Shown here: piece by piece, positions 3,044 to 57,746 of the stretch
How positions within the stretch are numbered: the first letter of the stretch is position 1
How the letters are laid out: the number at the start of each line of letters is the position of its first letter
Source of the DNA: Escherichia phage vB_EcoM_E9.1
Direction: 5' to 3' (one strand)
Length of the DNA: 64,000 nt
Sequence record: PP886230
The notes under the pieces: generated by a model
Told to the model about the DNA's origin: nothing
Databases searched by the model: none
What the model saw: the letters and a program-made list of their open reading frames with translations, nothing else
Position numbers and translations under genes: made by a program

Positions 3044-3071
3044 TAGACAAACCGTAAGAATGTGATATAAT
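3044..3071 (+). promoter_or_regulatory. early sigma70-like promoter (TAGACA-N16-TGaTATAAT)
   Basis: TAGACA 3044-3049, 16-nt spacer, TGn-TATAAT 3063-3071; member of a recurring promoter family in this window. Confidence 0.5.
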
Positions 3072-3111: not shown

Positions 3112-5400
3112 ATGAATCTTACTCAATTGTTCAAAAAAAGCGACGAACTGGCAACATCTCTAGGTCATACATTCTTGACTATTGACCACGTAAGTGCCAC
3201 AGTACTGACTATTGATAGCATCAAGAACGTATTTGAAGATATGAACATTGATGCAGACAAACTGCACAACCGCCTGATGAACTATCTTAAAAATACAACA
3301 GTTCCACATGCACCAAAAAGTGTTAAAGATGAAGACGCGAATCGAACTTCACTTCTAGTGAATCGCGTTGTACATGAGCTTTCTAAAAAATCAGTTATTG
3401 AACAACTAAAAAGTGATGATTTTTCGATTGATGCATATTTTGTTCTATTCGAATGTCTGTCTTTCCCTAACACAGCACTAGAAGCTGCGTTAAAAGAAGA
3501 AGGTGTTAGCTGTACTGAAGCTGCACGTGCATTACAGAAACACGTTGAGTCACTTGATAAGGGTATCAACTTACAAAGTATTAATGACGAACCGATTGGA
3601 GATAAAAAAGTGGCCCAACAGCAGCAATCATCTAAACAAAAAGGTTTGGAAGACTATACAACGAATCTAACTGCTCTTGCAAAAGAAGGCAAACTAGATC
3701 CTATGATTGGTCGCCAGAAAGAATTGTCTGCATTGATTGAGACTCTTGCTCGCAAAACCAAAAAGAATGCTATTCTCACTGGTGAAGCTGGTGTAGGTAA
3801 AACACAAATCATCGACGGGCTTGCACAAGCTATTGCTGATGGTAACGTACCTGAACACCTGAAAGACGTTGAAATTCTTTCACTAAATGTTGGTGCATTG
3901 ACTGCTGGTACTAAGTATCGTGGTGAATTTGAAGAACGCATCGACAATTTGCTAAAAGAACTAAAGAAACGTGAAAATACTATTGTTTTCATTGATGAAA
4001 TTCATATTATGGTTGGGGCTGGTTCCGCAAGTAATGGTTCTATGGACATGAGCAATATGCTTAAGCCAGCACTTTCACGTGGTGAGATTCGTGTAATTGG
4101 TGCAACAACATATGATGAATATCGTAAAAATATCGAGAAAGATAGTGCATTAACTCGTCGTTTTATGAAAATTGACGTAGTTGAGCCGACAATTGATGAA
4201 ACTCGTGCAATTGTTAATGGTTTGAAACCAACGTATGAAAAATTCCATAATGTTGAGTTCACATCTGATGCAATGGATGCTGTAATTTCTCTCAGTGATA
4301 AATTCCTGAAGAATAAGCACTTCCCAGATAAAGCAATTGATCTAATGGATGCTGCTGCGGCTAAAGTTCGTTCACGTGACAACAATAGTAAGCTAATTAC
4401 TGCCAATTTGATTCAAGAAGTTGTTGCTGGTATTGCCAATTTGGATATCAACGTGGTTGCATGTACTGAAAGTGATCGTATGCGTAATCTACCAGATGCA
4501 CTACGCTCACGTGTATACGGTCAAGAGGAAGCTATTCAAAAATTAGTTGATAACGTGATGGTAGCTCGTGCAGGACTGCGTGACAAATCTAGTGTTCAGG
4601 GTGCATTTATGTTTGTTGGACCATCTGGTACTGGTAAAACAGAAATTACCAAAGCATTAGCAGACGCAACTGGTGCGGAACTCATTCGCTTTGATATGTC
4701 AGAATTTTCTCAAGAACATACTGTTTCTAAACTAATTGGTTCACCTCCAGGTTATGTTGGTCATGATTCTGGTAACGGTTTACTGTTGGATAAAATTGAG
4801 CAGTTCCCTAATGCAGTACTGTTACTTGATGAAATTGAAAAAGCAGATCGTAAAGTACTACTAACCTTCCTACAGGTTTTGGATGAAGGTCGTCTGACTG
4901 GTTCTCAAGGTAAAACTGTATATTTTAATAACGTAACTGTTATTATGACTACAAACCTTGGTGCGGCTGATTCAACAAAGCGTAGCATTGGTATGAGCGG
5001 TAGTGACACTGCACAGGACAAGGCAATTAAAGCATTCTTGCCACCAGAGTTTATTAACCGTATTGATAGTATCGTTACGTTTAAAGACCTAAGCAGTGAA
5101 GCTATTGACAGCATCATTGATAAGTTCATGGGTGGTTTGAATGAACAAGTCAAAGACCGTAATGTTAAAGTTACATTAACAAAAGCTGCACGTGAATGGC
5201 TTGCGAAAAATGGGGTAAAAGTTGGTATGGGTGCACGTCCAATGAAACGTACCATTGAACAAAACATTCGTGTGCCACTAGCTAAAGAAATGTTGTGTGG
5301 TTCACTTGTGAATGGTGGTAACATTACATTTGATGTTATTGATGGTAAAATCGGTATTAAGCCGAAACGTACCAAAGCTGTAGATAAAGCACTAGTATAA
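3112..5400 (+). CDS. ClpA-type two-domain AAA+ unfoldase (Clp_N repeats, D1 and D2 ATPase modules)
   Basis: Two Walker A motifs ([17 protein letters not shown]) with Walker B FIDEIH and LLLDEIEKA; no ClpB-like coiled-coil middle domain; KRSIGMSGS loop at the position of the E. coli ClpA IGL ClpP-docking loop. Track start is GTG at 3091; ATG at 3112 has an AGGAG SD. Confidence 0.85.
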
Positions 5401-25971: not shown

Positions 25972-26017
25972 CTTTTTGATTCTCCATAATAAGGGAACAT
26001 TTGATGTATTTATACGT

Positions 26018-26045
26018 GGGACAAACTGCTTTTTGGTGCTATAAT
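26018..26045 (+). promoter_or_regulatory. early sigma70-like promoter (GGGACA-N16-TGcTATAAT)
   Basis: GGGACA 26018-26023, 16-nt spacer, TGc-TATAAT ending 26045; upstream of the gp55-like gene. Confidence 0.5.
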
Positions 26046-26102: not shown

Positions 26103-26942
26103 ATGACAAATAGACCAAAGCGTAAAAAGTATCTCAATAATGCTGATTTACTTCGTGAAATACAAAAAAGTAAAATTTCATATTGCTGGTTATTAGACAA
26201 ATCATATAGTATGTATGATTATATTGTTTTTCATGAGTCAGAAATTACTGCTGAGTTACTAGAAAAAGCTAAGGCAGCCCGAATTAAACGACTGAACAAT
26301 GAAATGCTTGATAGTATTCGTGAAAAGGAAAATATGAGTGCTAAAAAAGCTAAAGAATATGCAGATGAACACAATTTAGTTATCACTGACGTTCCAATTG
26401 ATGAAGTTGTTATTCGTGTTATTACAGATGAACATATTCCACCAGATACTAGAGTTAACTTTGAACCATTCAAGCATTATATTGTAGATAATGAAGGTAT
26501 TCTCTATGAAGTTTGTCGTTCTCACTGGAAAGGCGACCTTGAAACTGGTGAATTCAGTACTGTTCATGGTAAAATTACAAATGAACTTGGGAAGATGTTC
26601 ATTAAACTTGCAGAGGAAATCTCACACAAATCTAATTACAGAAACTATACATACTTAGATGAAATGATGGGTGATGCAAGAATACAATTAGTTAAAAACG
26701 CACTTCTCTTTAAAGAGAGCATTCTTTATAAAAAAGATAAACCAGCAGTTCAGCTAAATCCTTTCTCTTACTATACATCATTCGTAAACAATAGTTTTCG
26801 TTCTATATTGAATAGTGAGAAAAATGTTCGAAATATACGTGATGATTTACTTGAAATGCATGGCTTTACGCCATCACATACACGTCAAATTGAAATTGAA
26901 TTGAACATGATTGAAAGGAAAAATGAAGATGGCTCTGTTTGA
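26103..26942 (+). CDS. 55: gp55-like late sigma factor, 279 aa (longer than T4 gp55)
   Basis: N-terminus KRKKYLNNADLLREIQ resembles T4 gp55 KPKYNYVNNKELLQAI as recalled; sits upstream of gp47/gp46 as in T4. Confidence 0.55.
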   Translation: MTNRPKRKKYLNNADLLREIQKSKISYCWLLDKSYSMYDYIVFHESEITAELLEKAKAARIKRLNNEMLDSIREKENMSAKKAKEYADEHNLVITDVPIDEVVIRVITDEHIPPDTRVNFEPFKHYIVDNEGILYEVCRSHWKGDLETGEFSTVHGKITNELGKMFIKLAEEISHKSNYRNYTYLDEMMGDARIQLVKNALLFKESILYKKDKPAVQLNPFSYYTSFVNNSFRSILNSEKNVRNIRDDLLEMHGFTPSHTRQIEIELNMIERKNEDGSV

Positions 26943-30626: not shown

Positions 30627-30718
30627 AATTCCTCACCAAACTATTTGTTATCAAAATATTTATAGATTAGTTATTTGCAATATTTTAAGTACTTAATGAA
30701 TATTTTTATAAAAATAGT

Positions 30719-30746
30719 GAGACAACTTTAAAGTTTGTGCTATAAT
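30719..30746 (+). promoter_or_regulatory. early sigma70-like promoter (GAGACA-N16-TGcTATAAT) driving a noncoding region
   Basis: GAGACA 30719-30724, 16-nt spacer, TGc-TATAAT 30738-30746; no ORF downstream for about 450 nt. Confidence 0.55.
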
Positions 30747-32508: not shown

Positions 32509-32599
32509 TTTATTAAATCTCCATGTAATAAATGTGTTTTAGTATTTATAAGACTAAAAAAGATTAAATTAAACTAATTTTTATATTCTCTATAGTTTC

Positions 32600-38489: not shown

Positions 38490-38555
38490 CATTTTAAAAA
38501 TATAAATATCTGTATGTTGAAGTACAGATATTTCAGTACTTAAAGGAGAGAACGA

Positions 38556-39671
38556 ATGTCTAAATTAGAAAAGCTTCTAAAAGAATCATCTCTTTCTGAT
38601 GAGGCAAAACAGCTAATTCAGGAAGCATGGAATGAAGAAAAGAATACACTAGCCGCAGAGATGCGTGAAGAAATGAAAGGCCGTTATCAGCAAGATTTGG
38701 CTGAACTAACCGAAGGTTTGAATACTATGGTTACTCAAGTCATTGCTGAAGAAATGGGTGCTGTATATGAAGAGAAAAAACGTCTCGTTGAAGATCGTGT
38801 AACTCTACGTAAAACACTAAGCAATTTCTCTGCGTTTTCAAACTCTGTTTTGGCTGAAGAAGTTAAACAAATGCGTAAAGAACGTAAGCATCTTCATGAA
38901 TGCATGGGTAAATTCGTTAATTTTTCTAACGGTATACTAGCAGAAGAGCTAAAAGAATTCCACACTGAAAAACGTCAACTAGTTGAAACTCGCGTTAAAC
39001 TACTTGCTGAAGGTTCACGTCAAATTGCTGAAGCTCGTAATAACTTCATCAAACGTACATCTGAAAGTGCTGCTAAATATATTGCAGAAACCACTCAGAA
39101 GAATCTATATGCGTTGAAACAAGATCTAGTGGAAGCAAAACAAAATATGTTTGGTCGTAAAATCTTTGAAGCATTTGCTCAAGAGTTTAATGTCAAACAA
39201 TTTAATGAAAACTCATTGCTACGTTCCCTAACTGAATCAATTAAATCTAAAGAAGATGAAATTGCTCAAGTTAAGCAAGAACTACATGAAACTGCTAATG
39301 CGGTTAAAGCTGCTAAAACCAAACTACGTATTATGGAAGATGCACAAGCACGTAATGCGATTATGTCTGAACTAGTAAAACCACTAACTGCACAGCAAAA
39401 ACAAATTATGGAATCCCTTCTAGCTACTTCACCTACTGAAAAGCTTAAAGAAGATTTCAGCAAGTACCATAAGTCAGTACTTAACGGTACTAAAGTAAAT
39501 GAATCTGCTACCACTCGTCAAGCAGTTCAGTCTTCCGCTAAGAAAACTCTTGCAGAAGGTAAAGTAATCACTGGCAACCGTCAGGCTATTGTTGAAAGCG
39601 AAGAAATGACCGCTGACGATATGGCATTCCTAAAAGAACTCGATGTTCTTTCAGGTATCAATAAAAAATAA
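38556..39671 (+). CDS. scaffold protein, gp22-like
   Basis: Charged, helix-prone sequence between protease and capsid genes; exact TATAAATA at 38501-38508 upstream. Confidence 0.5.
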   Translation: MSKLEKLLKESSLSDEAKQLIQEAWNEEKNTLAAEMREEMKGRYQQDLAELTEGLNTMVTQVIAEEMGAVYEEKKRLVEDRVTLRKTLSNFSAFSNSVLAEEVKQMRKERKHLHECMGKFVNFSNGILAEELKEFHTEKRQLVETRVKLLAEGSRQIAEARNNFIKRTSESAAKYIAETTQKNLYALKQDLVEAKQNMFGRKIFEAFAQEFNVKQFNENSLLRSLTESIKSKEDEIAQVKQELHETANAVKAAKTKLRIMEDAQARNAIMSELVKPLTAQQKQIMESLLATSPTEKLKEDFSKYHKSVLNGTKVNESATTRQAVQSSAKKTLAEGKVITGNRQAIVESEEMTADDMAFLKELDVLSGINKK

Positions 39672-39709
39672 ACATTTTAAAGCATTTTAATAATCAAATT
39701 TTTCAGTTC

Positions 39710-39727
39710 TATAAATAATATCATACT
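39710..39727 (+). promoter_or_regulatory. late promoter (TATAAATAATATCATACT)
   Basis: Exact T4-type TATAAATA at 39710-39717, about 45 nt upstream of the capsid gene ATG. Confidence 0.55.
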
Positions 39728-39762
39728 GAAAAACGAATATAACATCTTTAAGGAGATATATA

Positions 39763-40938
39763 ATGTCACAACTACTAAATGAATCCAAATGGGTAGCAGT
39801 AAAAGAGAAACTAGTTGAAGGTCTACAGGGTACTCGTAAGTCTGTAATGGAAACTGTTCTTGATAACCATCGTAAAGTTATGCTAACTGAATCCGCAACT
39901 TCTGGTGCAACTACCGCTGGTAACATCGCTACTCTAAACAAAGTGATTCTACCAATTATGCGTCGTGTAATGCCAACCGTTATTGCTAACGAAATCATCG
40001 GTGTTCAACCAATGACTGGTCCAGTTGGTCAGATCCACACCCTACGTGTGCAATATGCTGATAACGCACCTGGTGTTATCGCTGGTGAAGAAATGCTTTC
40101 TCCATACAAAATCGCTAAATCCTACTCTGGTGATCTAAATGCGGATAATAGCAACCCACAAGCTGCTCCTACTAGCCAACTAGAAGGTACTATGGGTCGT
40201 CGCGTTAACATCCGTATTCTACGTGAAACTGTTGAAGCGAAATCTCGTCGTCTATCTGCACGTTGGACTGTTGAATCTGCACAAGATGCTCAATCCCAAC
40301 ATGGTGTTGACGTTGAAGCAGAACTAATGGCTGCAATCGCTCAAGAAGTTACCGTAGAAATCGACCAAGAGCTACTAAGCCGTCTACGTGCACTACCTGG
40401 TGCTGCTGCTGTAACTTATGACCAATCTAAAGTTACTGGTGTTGCAACCTTCGTTGGTGATGAGCACGCTGCTCTAGCAACTCTAATTAACCGTCAAGCA
40501 AACGAAGTTGCTCGTCGTACTAAGCGTGGTGCTGCAAACTGGGCTGTTGTTTCCCCAACTGCACTAACCATTCTACAATCTGCTACTACTTCTAGCTTTG
40601 CACGTACCACTGAAGGTACTTTCGAAGCACCAACTAACGTTAAGTTTGTAGGTACTCTAAACAGCACTATGCGTATTTTTGTTGATACTTATGCAAGTGA
40701 TGCAGAAGATATTCTAATTGGTTATAAAGGTAATGCAGAAACTGATGCTGGGGTGTTCTATTGCCCATACATCCCACTAATGGCTTCCGGTACTGTAATG
40801 GACCCTAACACTGGGGAACTCGTGACCACATTCCTTACCAGGTATGGTTATGTACAATTGACTGATAGTACTTCTTCTCTTGGTAACGCTGCTGACTACT
40901 ACAGCAAAATCGCTATCAAAAACGTTACTTTCATGTAA
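39763..40938 (+). CDS. 23: major capsid protein
   Basis: Follows protease and scaffold genes; late promoter and strong terminator; codon choice looks like a highly expressed gene. Sequence homology to T4 gp23 not verified. Confidence 0.65.
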   Translation: MSQLLNESKWVAVKEKLVEGLQGTRKSVMETVLDNHRKVMLTESATSGATTAGNIATLNKVILPIMRRVMPTVIANEIIGVQPMTGPVGQIHTLRVQYADNAPGVIAGEEMLSPYKIAKSYSGDLNADNSNPQAAPTSQLEGTMGRRVNIRILRETVEAKSRRLSARWTVESAQDAQSQHGVDVEAELMAAIAQEVTVEIDQELLSRLRALPGAAAVTYDQSKVTGVATFVGDEHAALATLINRQANEVARRTKRGAANWAVVSPTALTILQSATTSSFARTTEGTFEAPTNVKFVGTLNSTMRIFVDTYASDAEDILIGYKGNAETDAGVFYCPYIPLMASGTVMDPNTGELVTTFLTRYGYVQLTDSTSSLGNAADYYSKIAIKNVTFM

Positions 40939-40982
40939 TTGTAATAGATTTAAAAGATTTAATCAAGAAATTAAAAACAATA

Positions 40983-41010
40983 GGGACTCTTCGGAGTCCC
41001 TTTTCTTTTT
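40983..41010 (+). terminator. intrinsic terminator with UUCG tetraloop
   Basis: GGGACTC-ttcg-GAGTCCC followed by TTTTCTTTTT. Confidence 0.75.
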
Positions 41011-41013
41011 GTG

Positions 41014-41041
41014 TTGACACACCATCTTTTTTGTGTAATAA
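41014..41041 (+). promoter_or_regulatory. sigma70-like promoter for the accessory island
   Basis: TTGACA 41014-41019, 16-nt spacer, TG-TAATAA(T). Confidence 0.5.
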
Positions 41042-41076
41042 TACGCGTACATTATAAATGAAGAAGAGGAATTTTC

Positions 41077-41997
41077 ATGAAACCAAATGAAGAAAAATTT
41101 ATTAATACAGTGAATGAAAAGTACGGTACTGGTGTGTATTTGTTTGATAAAATGGTATATATTAATGCTCATAAACAGGTTGAACTTTATTGTGTAGAAG
41201 GTGGTCATTATTTCAAAATCACTCCTATGCAAATAGTCCGACCTTCTGCAAAAGGATGTAACATTTGTCAAAAAAACACAGCATACACGACTGAAACGTT
41301 TATTGAAAAAGTTAAAACCATCCATCCAACATTGTCATTTGAGAAAACTATCTACAAAAAACAAAGTGACAGTAATGGGCGAGTCATCGTTACGTGTCAT
41401 AATGATCCGAATGATGTGCATGATTGGATTGTATCTGCCAATACTTTGTTAAGAGGTAAATCAGGGTGTGGTGTTTGTTCTGGTAAAGGCGGGAGGACAT
41501 TGGAGCAATTTGTCAAAGAAGCAAAAAAAGTACATGGTGATGATTATGATTATTCTGAATCATGCTATACTGGTAGTGAAGAATATATGGATATGAAGTG
41601 TAATAATTGCAATGAAAAATTCAAACAACAGCCCAAAGCACACCTTTCAGGACGCGGGTGTCCTAACTGTGGTAAGTATGGATACCAACCATCAAAACCT
41701 GGATATTTCTATGTACAAAAACTAACTAACAATAACAAGACGGTGTACAAATATGGGATCACTGGTGATATGAAACGCCGTGTCAACGAACAAAGCCGCA
41801 ATTCTGAGTTCGAGCATGAAGTACTTATAGAACGCTACTTTGAAGATGGCAATCAACCATTACTGTTGGAAAAGTTCATAAAGAAATACATTGAAAGTGG
41901 TGTTGTAAGTACTGAAGAGTTACCGTCAGGATTTACTGAAACATTTGATGCTAAGTATCTTGAAAGTGTTTTAGAAATTGTAAATACTTTTAAGTAA
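41077..41997 (+). CDS. triple zinc-ribbon protein with C-terminal T5orf172 / GIY-YIG-like domain, 306 aa
   Basis: Three repeated modules each with a CxxC pair (KGCNICQKN, SGCGVCSGKG, MKCNNCNEK/GCPNCGKYG); C-terminal GYFYVQK...YKYGITGDMKRR resembles the GIY-YIG/T5orf172 fold. Confidence 0.5.
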   Translation: MKPNEEKFINTVNEKYGTGVYLFDKMVYINAHKQVELYCVEGGHYFKITPMQIVRPSAKGCNICQKNTAYTTETFIEKVKTIHPTLSFEKTIYKKQSDSNGRVIVTCHNDPNDVHDWIVSANTLLRGKSGCGVCSGKGGRTLEQFVKEAKKVHGDDYDYSESCYTGSEEYMDMKCNNCNEKFKQQPKAHLSGRGCPNCGKYGYQPSKPGYFYVQKLTNNNKTVYKYGITGDMKRRVNEQSRNSEFEHEVLIERYFEDGNQPLLLEKFIKKYIESGVVSTEELPSGFTETFDAKYLESVLEIVNTFK

Positions 41998-42020
41998 ACA
42001 ATCTAAAGGAGTTGACACGG

Positions 42021-42371
42021 ATGTTAACTGTATACAAATTTAACAAAGAAGAGTACTTAAAGAGTCAGTACTCAAATATAGAAATAAATGTTCCTTATGG
42101 TACGTTAGTTGGATATGATGAAGCCACTGAAACATTGTATTATAATGATGATAGATTGGATTATAGTTTAGATTCTTTCATAGAAGATATACTTAATACA
42201 CATACTGAAGATATGTTGTATGAAGAATACATAGATCATTATAGAGAACGTATGTCGGTGCTGCATTCTGATGCTCCTGTACTAAACATAGCACAAGAAC
42301 CATCGGAATTTCAGCCACATAATCCTTTTCAACGTTTAATTGATATTGGTTTAAAATTCACTATTAGTTGA
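42021..42371 (+). CDS. hypothetical protein, about 116 aa
   Basis: Track start is a TTG at 42012; ATG 42021 has an AAGGAG SD. Confidence 0.5.
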   Translation: MLTVYKFNKEEYLKSQYSNIEINVPYGTLVGYDEATETLYYNDDRLDYSLDSFIEDILNTHTEDMLYEEYIDHYRERMSVLHSDAPVLNIAQEPSEFQPHNPFQRLIDIGLKFTIS

Positions 42372-42374
42372 TAG

Positions 42375-42403
42375 ATAAATATCTCCATATTAATGATGGA
42401 GAT
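42375..42403 (+). promoter_or_regulatory. late promoter core followed by an 8-bp hairpin that sequesters the downstream SD
   Basis: ATAAATA at 42375-42381; ATCTCCAT (42381-42388) pairs perfectly with ATGGAGAT (42396-42403), which contains the GGAG SD for ATG 42411. Confidence 0.45.
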
Positions 42404-42410
42404 TGAATCT

Positions 42411-42719
42411 ATGTCACAGATATGTTATGTTATAATAAACTCTGCATGGCCTGACTATGTTAAGATTGGTTTCACTTCTAAATCTGAAATGACAGAGCGT
42501 TTGAGAACGTATCAGACAGCTACCCCGTTTCGTGATTTTGAAGTTTATCATGAAGTTCACTTTGAAGACGCACGTTTAGCTGAAAAAGAGATACATAAAA
42601 GGCTTAAACAAATGAATGCAACTAGACAACCAAACACAGAGTGGTTTAAAATGTCTAAAAAGATAGCAGCAAACATCATTGATTCTGTGTGGGATGATAT
42701 GGATAACGACTTGCTATAG
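42411..42719 (+). CDS. T5orf172 / GIY-YIG-like domain protein, about 102 aa
   Basis: CYVIINSAWPDYVKIGFTS...R...TEWF pattern; track ATG at 42393 lies in the hairpin loop and has no SD. Confidence 0.5.
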   Translation: MSQICYVIINSAWPDYVKIGFTSKSEMTERLRTYQTATPFRDFEVYHEVHFEDARLAEKEIHKRLKQMNATRQPNTEWFKMSKKIAANIIDSVWDDMDNDLL

Positions 42720-42759
42720 GAATAAATATAGTATATATTAATCATAAAGGGATTTATAC

Positions 42760-44370
42760 ATGAGCATAAGTTTTAATAACCCATTGGATACAATGACCAG
42801 TACTGGTGCTAATGGATCTTTAGAACTAATAGTGCTTGGTGGTACACCAACTAACCCAAGACCTATTCGTTTTAATTCGTCATCAGTTATTATACCAGTA
42901 CAAACGTTACCTACTGGTGAACAAGGTGCAATGGTTTTTGATCGAAACGAATTAGTTTTGAAGTATCATAACGGTACAAGTTGGATTGCAGTATATGATA
43001 CTGATACTATTTTGGAACCAATTAGAATTTCATTAGATGAAGTAAACAGAAAATTAAATTTAAAAGTAGAAAGTGTAACATACAGTAGTAGTACTGTTCC
43101 TAGTGCAAGTATTAGTGGAACAAACTTAAACATTGTATTCCCTACTGCTTCTAGTGGTGGTTCTGGTCCAACTGGTCTTTACACTTCACTTAAACCTGGT
43201 GCTATTACACAATATTCATTGACTTCTGGTCAATCTGTTGCTAGTATACGTGAACAAATGTCAGGGCAATCGAATGGACAAAGTGGACGAAACGGTTCAC
43301 AAGGTGCTCCGTGGAAAACGTCTGACGGTTGGTGTTTTGCTGATGGTATGTGGTGGCAATGGGAGGGGGAAAATGGTACAATTACCAAACAAGTACCAAA
43401 CCTTAACCAAAACGCGTATTTAAAAGGTATAACAACATCAGGTGTAACTAAAACTGATAGTGTTATTGGTAGTAGTGGTAACATTAGTGGAACTGTATTG
43501 AGTGTTGCCCAGTTACCATCACACTCATTTAGTTTTAGTGGAACCACTGGTGCTGCTGGTCGTCATGGTCATAGTCAAGCACTAAAAGGTATGGACCGTA
43601 GTGGTCTAAATGCGTTAACTTCAAGTAATGATAACGGTATACCAACTGTAATCAATAACATTAACGAAGCACCAGACCACATTCACTCATTTAGTGGAAA
43701 CACTAACACACTTGGTGGAAACCAACCACACTATCATGGTATTAGCAACATTGATGTGGAACACTTTAACGTTGCATACCTATATAACATTGCTGAATCT
43801 AACGTCGCATTGAGTGAAAAAGTTGCAAACACTCGTTATGTACTAAAAACTGGTGATACAATGACTGGTTCATTGACTATTGCAAACAGTGCGTCAATTA
43901 AGTCAAATGATACATCATTAGTTCTATATTTCCGTAACGCAAGCGGTGGTGAGCGTGCGGCAGTGTATCATAACTCTTCAAATAATACATTGAGATTACG
44001 TTCCGGTGGAGCAGAAGTTACTGTAAACTCTTCTGGTACTTTAGCTGCTCCATCATTAACTGTTTCTAACAACTCAGCTACTGTTGGTGGTAAAAATATT
44101 GTTCGTTCAATTAACGGTACTGCTGCTGATGCTAGTGGCAACGTTACTTTGCAAATTAGTACTAATAACGTACAAAGTATTCGTTTGAGTGCACGTATTG
44201 AAACAAGTAAAATACCTGATTCTTCATGGACATATACACCAGAAGGTGCATTTATGGATGGCGTATGGATTTCTGTTAATGGTAGTTCAGGCACTCACTT
44301 AGAACGAATTAGTTATCGCTATGTTCAAATGCAAATAAATGGTAACTGGGAAACAGTACGTCAACAATAA
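42760..44370 (+). CDS. tail fibre protein, 536 aa
   Basis: KTGDTMTGSLTI and Ser/Thr/Asn/Gly-rich repeats typical of tail fibre distal regions; followed by an assembly chaperone gene. Confidence 0.65.
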   Translation: MSISFNNPLDTMTSTGANGSLELIVLGGTPTNPRPIRFNSSSVIIPVQTLPTGEQGAMVFDRNELVLKYHNGTSWIAVYDTDTILEPIRISLDEVNRKLNLKVESVTYSSSTVPSASISGTNLNIVFPTASSGGSGPTGLYTSLKPGAITQYSLTSGQSVASIREQMSGQSNGQSGRNGSQGAPWKTSDGWCFADGMWWQWEGENGTITKQVPNLNQNAYLKGITTSGVTKTDSVIGSSGNISGTVLSVAQLPSHSFSFSGTTGAAGRHGHSQALKGMDRSGLNALTSSNDNGIPTVINNINEAPDHIHSFSGNTNTLGGNQPHYHGISNIDVEHFNVAYLYNIAESNVALSEKVANTRYVLKTGDTMTGSLTIANSASIKSNDTSLVLYFRNASGGERAAVYHNSSNNTLRLRSGGAEVTVNSSGTLAAPSLTVSNNSATVGGKNIVRSINGTAADASGNVTLQISTNNVQSIRLSARIETSKIPDSSWTYTPEGAFMDGVWISVNGSSGTHLERISYRYVQMQINGNWETVRQQ

Positions 44371-44380
44371 GGAATGTGTA

Positions 44381-44896
44381 ATGCAACTAACAAATTTTAA
44401 GATGTATGAAAAAGAAGGTGGTAATCCTAATTCTTTGTATATGATGTCCGATGAAGGTATGGATTGGTATGAATCTCGTGAATTGTTTGACATTAATAAA
44501 GCAAAATTTATGTATGATATTAACGGTTTAATTGTTTCAGCATCATATAACATTTATGATCTAGTACCTTTAGGTTTTAGTGTTTCTGAAATTGAATATG
44601 ATGGTGATATTAACAAACTTTATGGTATGGTTTACGATGGAAATACTATTCATGACTATATTGAAACTAAAGAAGAAAAAATTGAACGCCTAAAAAATGA
44701 ATTATCTAATTTGAAATACATTGCAATTCAAGAACTTGGACACTTAAAAACGGCTATGGATCTTGAGTTAGCAACTGATGAAGAAGCTGTATTGTTTGTG
44801 AAATTGAAAGATTATGTAACGCAATTGAATTCAATCAAACCAGCAGACATGATCAAGAAAACATTTTCATTTCCAGTTAAACCGGAAAAAAAATGA
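44381..44896 (+). CDS. tail fibre assembly chaperone (Tfa-like)
   Basis: C-terminal AMDLELATDEEAVLFVKLKDYVTQLNSIK aligns with the lambda Tfa [29 protein letters not shown] region as recalled; ATG 44381 has an AAGGAA SD. Confidence 0.75.
   Translation: MQLTNFKMYEKEGGNPNSLYMMSDEGMDWYESRELFDINKAKFMYDINGLIVSASYNIYDLVPLGFSVSEIEYDGDINKLYGMVYDGNTIHDYIETKEEKIERLKNELSNLKYIAIQELGHLKTAMDLELATDEEAVLFVKLKDYVTQLNSIKPADMIKKTFSFPVKPEKK

Positions 44897-52422: not shown

Positions 52423-57746
<5,324 letters not shown>

Follow-up and report, generated by a model that had tools for sequence, protein, structure and literature searches.

The translation of several genes of bacteriophage T4 depends on the point at which their transcripts begin. 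For the lysozyme gene e, the mechanism is established (McPheeters et al. 1986; reviewed in PMC3014915): the late promoter is embedded in the sequence specifying the 5' strand of a stem that sequesters the translation initiation region, long transcripts that carry the whole stem are silent, and late transcripts begin without the 5' strand; both the transcript ends and a translational effect of about 100-fold have been measured. Similar leaders have been predicted in close T4-type phages, and the same device has been described or inferred for soc, gene 49, the genes of I-TevI, of I-TevII and of I-TevIII, segB, and mobE of phage Aeh1 (PMC3014915; PMC2988022). Here we consider a candidate for such control in a stretch of 64,000 nucleotides (nt) from Escherichia phage vB_EcoM_E9.1 (record PP886230; hereinafter, the window), where a predicted late promoter with the core ATAAATA (42375-42381) runs directly into a hairpin that covers the Shine-Dalgarno (SD) sequence of a gene for a 102-amino-acid (aa) T5orf172/GIY-YIG-like protein. 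The phage is an Asteriusvirus-like jumbo coliphage, positions 41000-44400 of the window being 96-99% identical to the group of 121Q, PBECO4, G17 and slurp01 (Asteriusvirus, about 350 kb).

The placement of the promoter within the stem is what this site has in common with T4 e. Unlike e, the site is predicted from the sequence, belongs to the clade of Rak2-like jumbo phages, has an ATAAATA core with a free position -13, precedes a GIY-YIG-like gene instead of a lysozyme gene, and follows an open reading frame (ORF) that ends directly at the promoter. In T4, soc and gene 49 are comparable as late genes that are carried on long polycistronic transcripts and have initiation-region hairpins that are relieved in transcripts from their late promoters; they differ from the present case in having experimental support and in belonging to a different phage lineage. 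The I-TevI group (with I-TevII, I-TevIII, segB and Aeh1 mobE; PMC2988022) is similar in two respects, namely, the GIY-YIG-type catalytic domain of the product (predicted in the present case) and the leader, in which the SD sequence is located some 8-9 nt before the AUG, in the 3' arm, with the late promoter placed so as to prevent the stem from forming in late transcripts. However, I-TevI is an intron-encoded, mobile, two-domain homing endonuclease that autorepresses its promoter, whereas the protein considered here has a single domain, and its gene, which involves no intron, is conserved vertically in several genera, where it occupies a single syntenic position between the genes for capsid and tail fibre. 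Our searches of the literature revealed no description of this promoter-in-hairpin arrangement in these phages.

Promoter core, hairpin and predicted transcripts

The elements of the site are as follows.

42374-42381, plus strand: putative late-promoter core GATAAATA (ATAAATA at 42375-42381), the equivalent of T4 TATAAATA at -13 to -6
42381-42388, plus strand: 5' arm of the hairpin, ATCTCCAT (anti-SD), its first base being the last base of the core
42387, plus strand: start of late transcription as predicted by T4 numbering, 6 nt past the core
42389-42395, plus strand: loop, ATTAATG
42396-42403, plus strand: 3' arm, ATGGAGAT, containing the SD sequence GGAG at 42398-42401
42411-42719, plus strand: the gene under putative control, for the 102-aa T5orf172/GIY-YIG-like protein (ATG at 42411-42413)

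The first-pass annotation of this DNA, made from the letters alone, had described an ATAAATA motif at 42375-42381 followed by two perfect 8-bp arms (42381-42388 and 42396-42403), the second containing GGAG, ahead of an ATG at 42411, and each of these elements is found in the sequence exactly as described. The true start is the ATG at 42411; G17 is annotated with the same start, and all orthologues share the N-terminus that it yields, M-SQICYV. Two further in-frame ATGs upstream, at 42393 and 42396, are not conserved. Minimum-free-energy folding gives the hairpin, at -9.0 kcal/mol. When the leader of 42 nt is compared with dinucleotide shuffles, z = -1.3 and 21 of the 200 shuffles fold as well; when the shuffling is restricted to the segment from the core to the 3' arm, p = 0.016. 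From the window sequence alone, the hairpin is suggestive, not decisive.

The same stem was considered as an intrinsic (Rho-independent) terminator on the plus strand and rejected, since it is followed not by a U-tract but by the tail TGAATCTATG. A terminator scan flags 42381-42403 on the minus strand only, the T-rich tail ATTTATCTAT being the complement of the promoter core; this flag is probably meaningless as no minus-strand gene converges there. The comparison with Rfam gave no match in the window at the gathering score, and the only match at the site was a spurious one of 20 bits to PYLIS_1 (gathering score 70).

The distribution of ATAAATA in the window supports the view that this motif acts as the late-promoter core of the phage. 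The motif is depleted overall (20 copies against 38 +/- 6 expected), and 17 of the 20 copies fall within intergenic DNA, which makes up about 5% of the window, each of them oriented toward the next gene; the genes behind these copies include those for the capsid (motif at 39711), the scaffold (38502) and the tail fibre (42722). An 18th copy, at 26007, probably counts too, being followed by a later ATG with an SD sequence. The base that precedes the motif may be T, G, C or A, so that the G at 42374 is no defect; TAAATA, in turn, is invariant across 21 aligned orthologous leaders. In T4 late promoters, position -13 is the least constrained one (PMC2988020). For the related phages CBB and GAP32, ATAAATA has been proposed as the late promoter (PMC5259590); the paper on RNA sequencing of PA5oct gives no information on ATAAATA promoters. 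A candidate for the cognate factor is encoded in the window itself:

26103-26942, plus strand: gp55-like late sigma factor gene (phrog_12791, E = 3e-154; phrog_234, 'late sigma transcription factor', E = 8e-18)

The gene is annotated as such in 121Q as well, and its product is the factor that would be expected to read the ATAAATA promoters. In silico, the TATAAATA-like -10 box immediately upstream of the gene at 42411 agrees with a late promoter of the gp55 type, a class that has no -35 element. Sequence searches of the PDB with the sigma factor and with the T5orf172 protein yielded nothing useful.

As the TATA box of T4 late promoters occupies -13 to -6 (PMC2988020), the corresponding late transcript would start at 42387 and leave out the 5' arm except for 2 of its 8 nt. 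Every G-C pair of the stem draws its 5' partner from positions +1 to +5 past the core, which are upstream of this predicted start. The calculated probability that the SD sequence is unpaired is 0.01-0.02 in the long transcript of the window and 0.35-0.41 in the transcript from the predicted start; over 27 variants, the means are 0.14 for long and 0.45 for short transcripts. The prediction for the window bears out the earlier suggestion that read-through RNA would hide the SD sequence. Since three or four other genes in the window are equally closed (unpaired probability of 0.03 or less), sequestration alone does not single out this gene; what singles it out is the combination of a short transcript in which the SD sequence is predicted to be released and the conservation described below. 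Transcripts initiated upstream are, then, predicted to form an SD-sequestering stem-loop, as they do in the T4-type switches.

Two features upstream of the site bear on the origin of such long transcripts.

40982-41001, plus strand: strong intrinsic terminator 3' of the major capsid gene, annotated in G17 and conserved in relatives
41014-41042, plus strand: sigma-70-like promoter TTGACA-17-TGtAATAAT, with an extended -10 and 11 of 12 matches, just 3' of the capsid terminator

The sigma-70-like promoter is the best of the region, and the terminator scan found none on the plus strand between 41001 and the hairpin. This promoter is a plausible source, of the early or middle type, of read-through RNA in this phage, and leaky read-through of the capsid terminator would be a second source of long transcripts. 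The promoter arrived with the inserted endonuclease-like gene (41077-41997) that it precedes. Beside it, at 41052-59, there is a near-late box, TATAAATG.

A related pattern of the extended -10 type, (G/A/T)(G/A)GACA-N16-TG-n-TATAAT, recurs between genes on the plus strand of the window:

3044-3071, 26018-26045, 30717-30746, 57644-57671 and 57719-57746, plus strand: extended -10 sigma-70-like copies, the one at 26018 lying just upstream of the late sigma factor gene

These copies possibly represent the early or middle promoter class of the phage, and their placement fits use by the host RNA polymerase before late transcription.

Conservation of the leader and of its gene

Orthologues were gathered from GenBank phages, from IMG/VR and metagenomes, and from a large protein collection. 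Those of the 102-aa protein, with 63-100% aa identity, occur in jumbo phages only, namely, in Asteriusvirus, Eneladusvirus (phages of Yersinia and Erwinia), SE_PL-like phages of Salmonella, XaC1-like phages of Xanthomonas, and metagenomic jumbo phages. In most of these, the synteny is retained, with the capsid gene followed by one to three small genes, the 102-aa gene and the tail-fibre gene. The leaders, about 28 of which are distinct, follow one layout: an (A/C)TAAATA core, a C-rich 5' arm at once, a loop, a 3' arm with the SD sequence, and the ATG. This layout of core and hairpin is present in every orthologous leader but one lineage, and wherever it is present, the 5' arm keeps a fixed register with the core; the loop varies between 4 and 10 nt, and the ATG is located 4-9 nt past the SD arm. 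The stems themselves are diverse:

window: ATCTCCAT/ATGGAGAT
relative, with one U·G pair: ATCTTCAT/ATGGAGAT
relative: ATCTCCA-GAAA-TGGAGAT
relative: ATATCTCC/GGAGATAT
relative: TACTTCC/GGAGGTA
relative: AATACTCCC/GGGGGTATT
relatives: ACCCC/GGGGT; ACCC/GGGT; AATACCC/GGGTATT
relative: ACCTTCACT/AGTGGAGGT
relative: TACTTCATCT/AGATGAGGTA
relative, 13 bp, -15.7 kcal/mol: AAATATCCCTGTA/TACAGGGATATTT
relative: AATAACTCACCT/AGGAGAGTTATT

Across the relatives, the folding free energy of the leader ranges from -4.7 to -15.7 kcal/mol, as against 0 to -3.3 kcal/mol for the transcript that starts 6 nt after the core. The two halves of the stem belong together: native combinations of 5' and 3' halves average -8.64 kcal/mol and permuted ones -5.65 +/- 0.53, with none of 10000 permutations reaching the native value, and among eight representatives of different stem classes, no derangement reaches it either. 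As a control, the leaders of the neighbouring tail-fibre late promoters were taken from the same genomes; they are similar in length, lack an SD stem and average -1.9 kcal/mol.

Because MAFFT alignments of the leaders misregister the 3' arms, pairs were counted on alignments from a covariance model that was built iteratively on the relatives (R1, then R2). The R2 model finds one site per genome, which is the leader of this gene; in the window, its sole match is 42374-42415, and a search of 182 kb on both strands gave nothing else at E <= 1. The paired cells amount to 93.9%, compared to 84.2 +/- 1.5 for shuffled partners (0 of 500 shuffles reach the observed value), and the covariation score is 0.298, compared to 0.121 in shuffles (again 0 of 500), figures that are to be taken as supportive and not as exact probabilities because relatedness among the sequences and the fitting of the alignment to the structure enter into them. 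Controls in which the partners were slid give 31-72% paired cells. At one pair, AU, CG and UA occur 8, 8 and 4 times, respectively, and at another, UA occurs 12 times and CG 8 times. A U·G pair is seen in four cells at two pairs, always with the U in the 5' arm, the orientation that works in sense RNA; antisense RNA or a cruciform of DNA would have A·C mismatches in these cells. Compensatory evolution holds the layout across several genera, which means that it is selected for and not incidental.

The protein itself belongs to a small family, with 32 clusters among 5.8 billion proteins, the contig-placed members of which adjoin genes for Gp23-type capsid proteins or tail fibres. It matches Pfam T5orf172 with 50.5 bits (cut-off 20) and MUG113 with 49.2 bits (cut-off 22.3), through a single domain that spans residues 4-91 of the 102 aa, with no DNA-binding domain joined to it. 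The invariant residues of the orthologues, Y6, G20, R30, H47, E77 and N88, resemble the catalytic set of I-TevI, to which they may correspond. A free-standing homing endonuclease of the seg or mob kind was considered and rejected, the gene being syntenic, conserved and single-domain, with no sporadic, mobile distribution. In this it is unlike the neighbouring gene at 41077-41997, which is variable or absent in relatives.

The proposed switch and its rivals

From the sequence elements, their thermodynamic behaviour, and the conservation and covariation of the leader, we infer where late transcripts start, that long transcripts exist and at what time, and how translation is affected. In the scenario that we favour, with a probability of about 0.62, the site is a translational switch of the T4 e and I-TevI type that depends on the origin of the transcript. 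Messenger RNA initiated upstream, be it at the 41014 promoter, at a promoter of the upstream gene or by read-through of the capsid terminator, would carry both arms of the hairpin, with the GGAG of the T5orf172 gene base-paired and ribosome initiation poor. The gp55-like sigma factor would direct RNA polymerase to the ATAAATA at 42375-81 so that transcription starts at about 42387, inside the 5' arm, and the resulting transcript, being devoid of the anti-SD, would be translatable. The GIY-YIG-like protein would then be made only from its own late promoter, in an amount set by that promoter.

Several observations weigh against this scenario or restrict it. The position of the transcription start is borrowed from T4, and searches of the literature brought up no transcript 5' ends or expression data for this phage group. 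In the T4 late promoters, A or T is preferred just after the core (PMC2988020); the bases directly 3' of the core are C-rich here, so the promoter at 42375 may be weak. In phage CBB, a gp55-like factor has been found but no homologues of gp33 and gp45 (PMC5259590), and the details of initiation may, therefore, differ from those in T4. Weak alternative pairing, of -2.5 to -6.6 kcal/mol, persists in the predicted short transcript, whose SD sequence is not freed in one of the variants, L083; the reservation attached above to the covariation counts is also to be kept in mind. The most divergent orthologues, from metagenomic loci L093 and L094 (63% aa identity; L093:1113-1806), have neither the core nor the SD hairpin, and there the upstream ORF overlaps the start as ATGA, the arrangement of classical translational coupling. 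Some orthologues thus do without the device, and it may be of importance that the gene is expressed along with its neighbour.

A further restriction concerns the source of the long transcripts. In fEgEco12, which lacks the inserted endonuclease-like gene, the spacer contains only a late-like CTAAATA, and in other genera GTAAATA or CTAAATA is found upstream of the preceding gene along with assorted sigma-70-like boxes. As the relatives without the inserted gene thus show a late-type element upstream, a strict early/late logic is doubtful, and the contrast may be one between read-through transcripts and those from the gene's own promoter rather than between early and late ones. It is safer to predict for the entire clade that transcripts derived from upstream, among them leaky read-through from the capsid gene with its very strong transcription, are translationally closed and that only the gene's own promoter yields an open message.

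The strongest rival, unlikely as we judge it, is translational coupling to the gene that ends just before the core.

42021-42371, plus strand: conserved hypothetical gene upstream of the site (phrog_15724), with the stop codon TGA at 42369-42371

Under this explanation, a ribosome that terminates on the upstream ORF would open the stem and the protein would be made in step with its neighbour, the ATAAATA being secondary, or conserved in part as the supplier of a TAA stop. The geometry lends it some weight against a switch: in 24 of the 25 variants with a locatable upstream ORF, the first paired base and the end of the upstream stop are -5 to +9 nt apart, and in most of them -5 to +6 nt, with a TAA stop within the core in many genomes. 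The two genes adjoin in most loci examined (the exceptions are L101 and L098), and the ATGA overlap in the two loci without the hairpin suggests that co-expression could be the conserved feature. Other observations speak against coupling. In the window, 3 nt separate the TGA from the core and 9 nt separate it from the 5' arm, the gap to the arm is likewise 8-9 nt in XaC1 (L004), and it reaches 16 nt in L098; a terminating ribosome would barely span, or fail to span, a gap of 9 nt, as in the window, or of 16 nt. In the window and in L002, L004 and L098, no part of the core is coding and yet the core is conserved, and locus L101 has a different upstream gene (a 621-aa endonuclease-like ORF), yet it keeps the core along with a 13-bp hairpin. 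Besides, coupling needs no fixed register between the core and the 5' arm.

Less probable still is that the hairpin serves the upstream message as a 3'-end stabiliser, a processing site or a weak terminator, in which case the overlap with the SD sequence would follow from the short spacer (27-48 nt) and the embedding of the promoter from the compactness of the genome. The existence of other late promoters in the window that are located in conserved hairpins without an SD sequence (38504-38533; 39699-39733, in the loop; 32543, minus strand) speaks for such a role. Against it, the plus strand has no U-tract following the stem, every variant has the SD sequence itself as its 3' arm, and the covarying pairs are those with the SD purines; moreover, whatever selected the hairpin, the SD sequence is sequestered in any RNA that has both arms.

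We consider it very improbable that the inverted repeat acts at the level of DNA, as a cruciform or as a promoter-overlapping operator to which a dimeric regulator would bind. It does cover -6 to +17 of the predicted promoter, and a precedent exists in the autorepression of I-TevI through an operator that overlaps its late promoter (PMC2988022). However, the sequences of the half-sites vary and complementarity alone is conserved, the U·G pairs are tolerated only in sense-strand RNA, the loop ranges from 4 to 10 nt among relatives, and the 102-aa protein lacks a DNA-binding domain. Finally, a chance palindrome beside a chance ATAAATA, which the figures for the window alone (z = -1.3, local-shuffle p = 0.016) might have allowed, is effectively refuted by the comparative data, that is, by some 28 distinct leaders with covarying stems, a single covariance-model site per genome and tail-fibre leaders without such structure.

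As far as sequence analysis goes, the data support the interpretation given in the first-pass annotation, the layout being kept with compensatory changes across genera, and the switch proposed here would be a new example of a known T4 control device, the novelty residing in the Rak2-like lineage, in the gene that is regulated and in the depth of conservation with covariation. It would extend a textbook device of T4 to distant, poorly studied jumbo phages of 350 kb and would mark the 102-aa GIY-YIG-like protein as one that is tightly controlled in amount or timing, which is a lead to its function. It would also provide independent, structure-based support for ATAAATA as a functional late promoter and indirect evidence on the position of the late start. 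The predictions are a primary 5' end at about 42387 and a translationally silent read-through RNA.

Neighbouring genes, other promoter hairpins and AGTACT

All genes around the site are on the plus strand, the prohead protease gene coming first and the scaffold gene next.

38556-39671, plus strand: scaffold gene, following the prohead protease gene
39763-40938, plus strand: T4 gp23-like major capsid gene (Pfam Gp23, E = 1e-89)
41077-41997, plus strand: inserted endonuclease-like gene, 306 aa (DUF4379 zinc finger and a weak T5orf172-like C-terminus)
42760-44370, plus strand: tail-fibre gene, followed by a tail-fibre assembly gene

The stretch between the capsid terminator and the conserved hypothetical gene (41002-42020) is a variable insertion site among relatives. 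In the window and in G17 it is occupied by the 306-aa DUF4379/T5orf172-like gene and in 121Q and PBECO4 by other versions; in fEgEco12 there is none, and loci L096 and L101 have larger DUF723/DUF4379 genes.

In the window, three late promoters are associated with hairpins in different ways: that of the T5orf172 gene, with the SD sequence in the 3' arm; that of the scaffold gene, with the 5' arm laid over the core; and that of the capsid gene, with the core in the loop.

38501-38533, plus strand: scaffold promoter hairpin, with TATAAATA at 38501-38508 and a 12-bp stem of 38504-38515 with 38522-38533 (-13.2 kcal/mol, z = -2.5)

The first-pass annotation had pointed to 38501-38531 as a related arrangement. 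The overlap of promoter and hairpin is real there; the SD sequence, however, is not occluded since both the SD sequence (38543-38549) and the ATG (38556) lie outside the stem. The arrangement at 38501-38533 is kept with changed stems in Yen9-04, SE_PL and XaC1. Among the described systems, it comes closest to seg43(25) of Aeromonas phage 25 (PMC2988022), where a stable hairpin is located just upstream of the site at which ribosomes bind, without sequestering it, and differs from it in overlapping the late promoter core, in belonging to a scaffold gene and in being conserved across genera. In the transcript from the predicted start, the 3' arm of the scaffold hairpin can pair alternatively with a conserved downstream sequence, CAGTACTT (38534-41). 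By eye, both pairings are possible in Yen9-04, SE_PL and XaC1 as well, so that long and late transcripts would differ in their 5' structure.

The capsid late promoter, TATAAATA at 39710-17, is placed in the loop of a 9-bp stem, TTTTTCAGT/ACTGAAAAA (39699-39733, plus strand), upstream of the capsid start at 39763. The promoter-in-loop arrangement is kept with other stems in Eneladusvirus (TTTTCTGT/ACAGAAAA), in XaC1-like phages (TTGTGTGAT/ATCATACAA) and in SE_PL-like phages, and the capsid SD sequence is flanked by the halves of another small stem that is conserved, ATCTT..GAGAT. A stem with the core in its loop, TTTTAGT..ACTAAAA, is also seen at 32543 on the minus strand.

It is a doubtful but conceivable generalization that late promoters set in conserved hairpins represent a general and ancient design of the Rak2-like jumbo phages. 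If the design were general, it would constitute a genome-wide layer of control in which the origin of a transcript determines its structure and, through it, translation, stability or processing, and the T4 e and I-TevI switch would be one remnant of a mechanism that predates the separation of T4-like from Rak2-like phages.

A separate observation concerns the palindrome AGTACT, often in the form CAGTACT(G), which is strongly over-represented throughout the window (for example, at 3200, 4814, 8640, 18984, 38534, 42798 and 60768). For CAGTACT, 92 occurrences compare with an expectation of 7.7 +/- 3.1, and for CAGTACTG, 22 compare with 0.8. Within genes, AGTACT is found 98 times against 29.2 +/- 4.4, and CAGTACTG 21 times against 1.4, when the comparison is made with synonymous-codon shuffles that keep the proteins and the codon usage. 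As the excess persists against such shuffles, it acts at the level of the nucleic acid. Searches of the literature gave no explanation of this enrichment. The sites are evenly spread, with a median spacing of 417 bp, and the frame AGT-ACT is favoured (60 of the 98); in relatives from other genera (loci L002-L102, L089), AGTACT is enriched 4-10 times.

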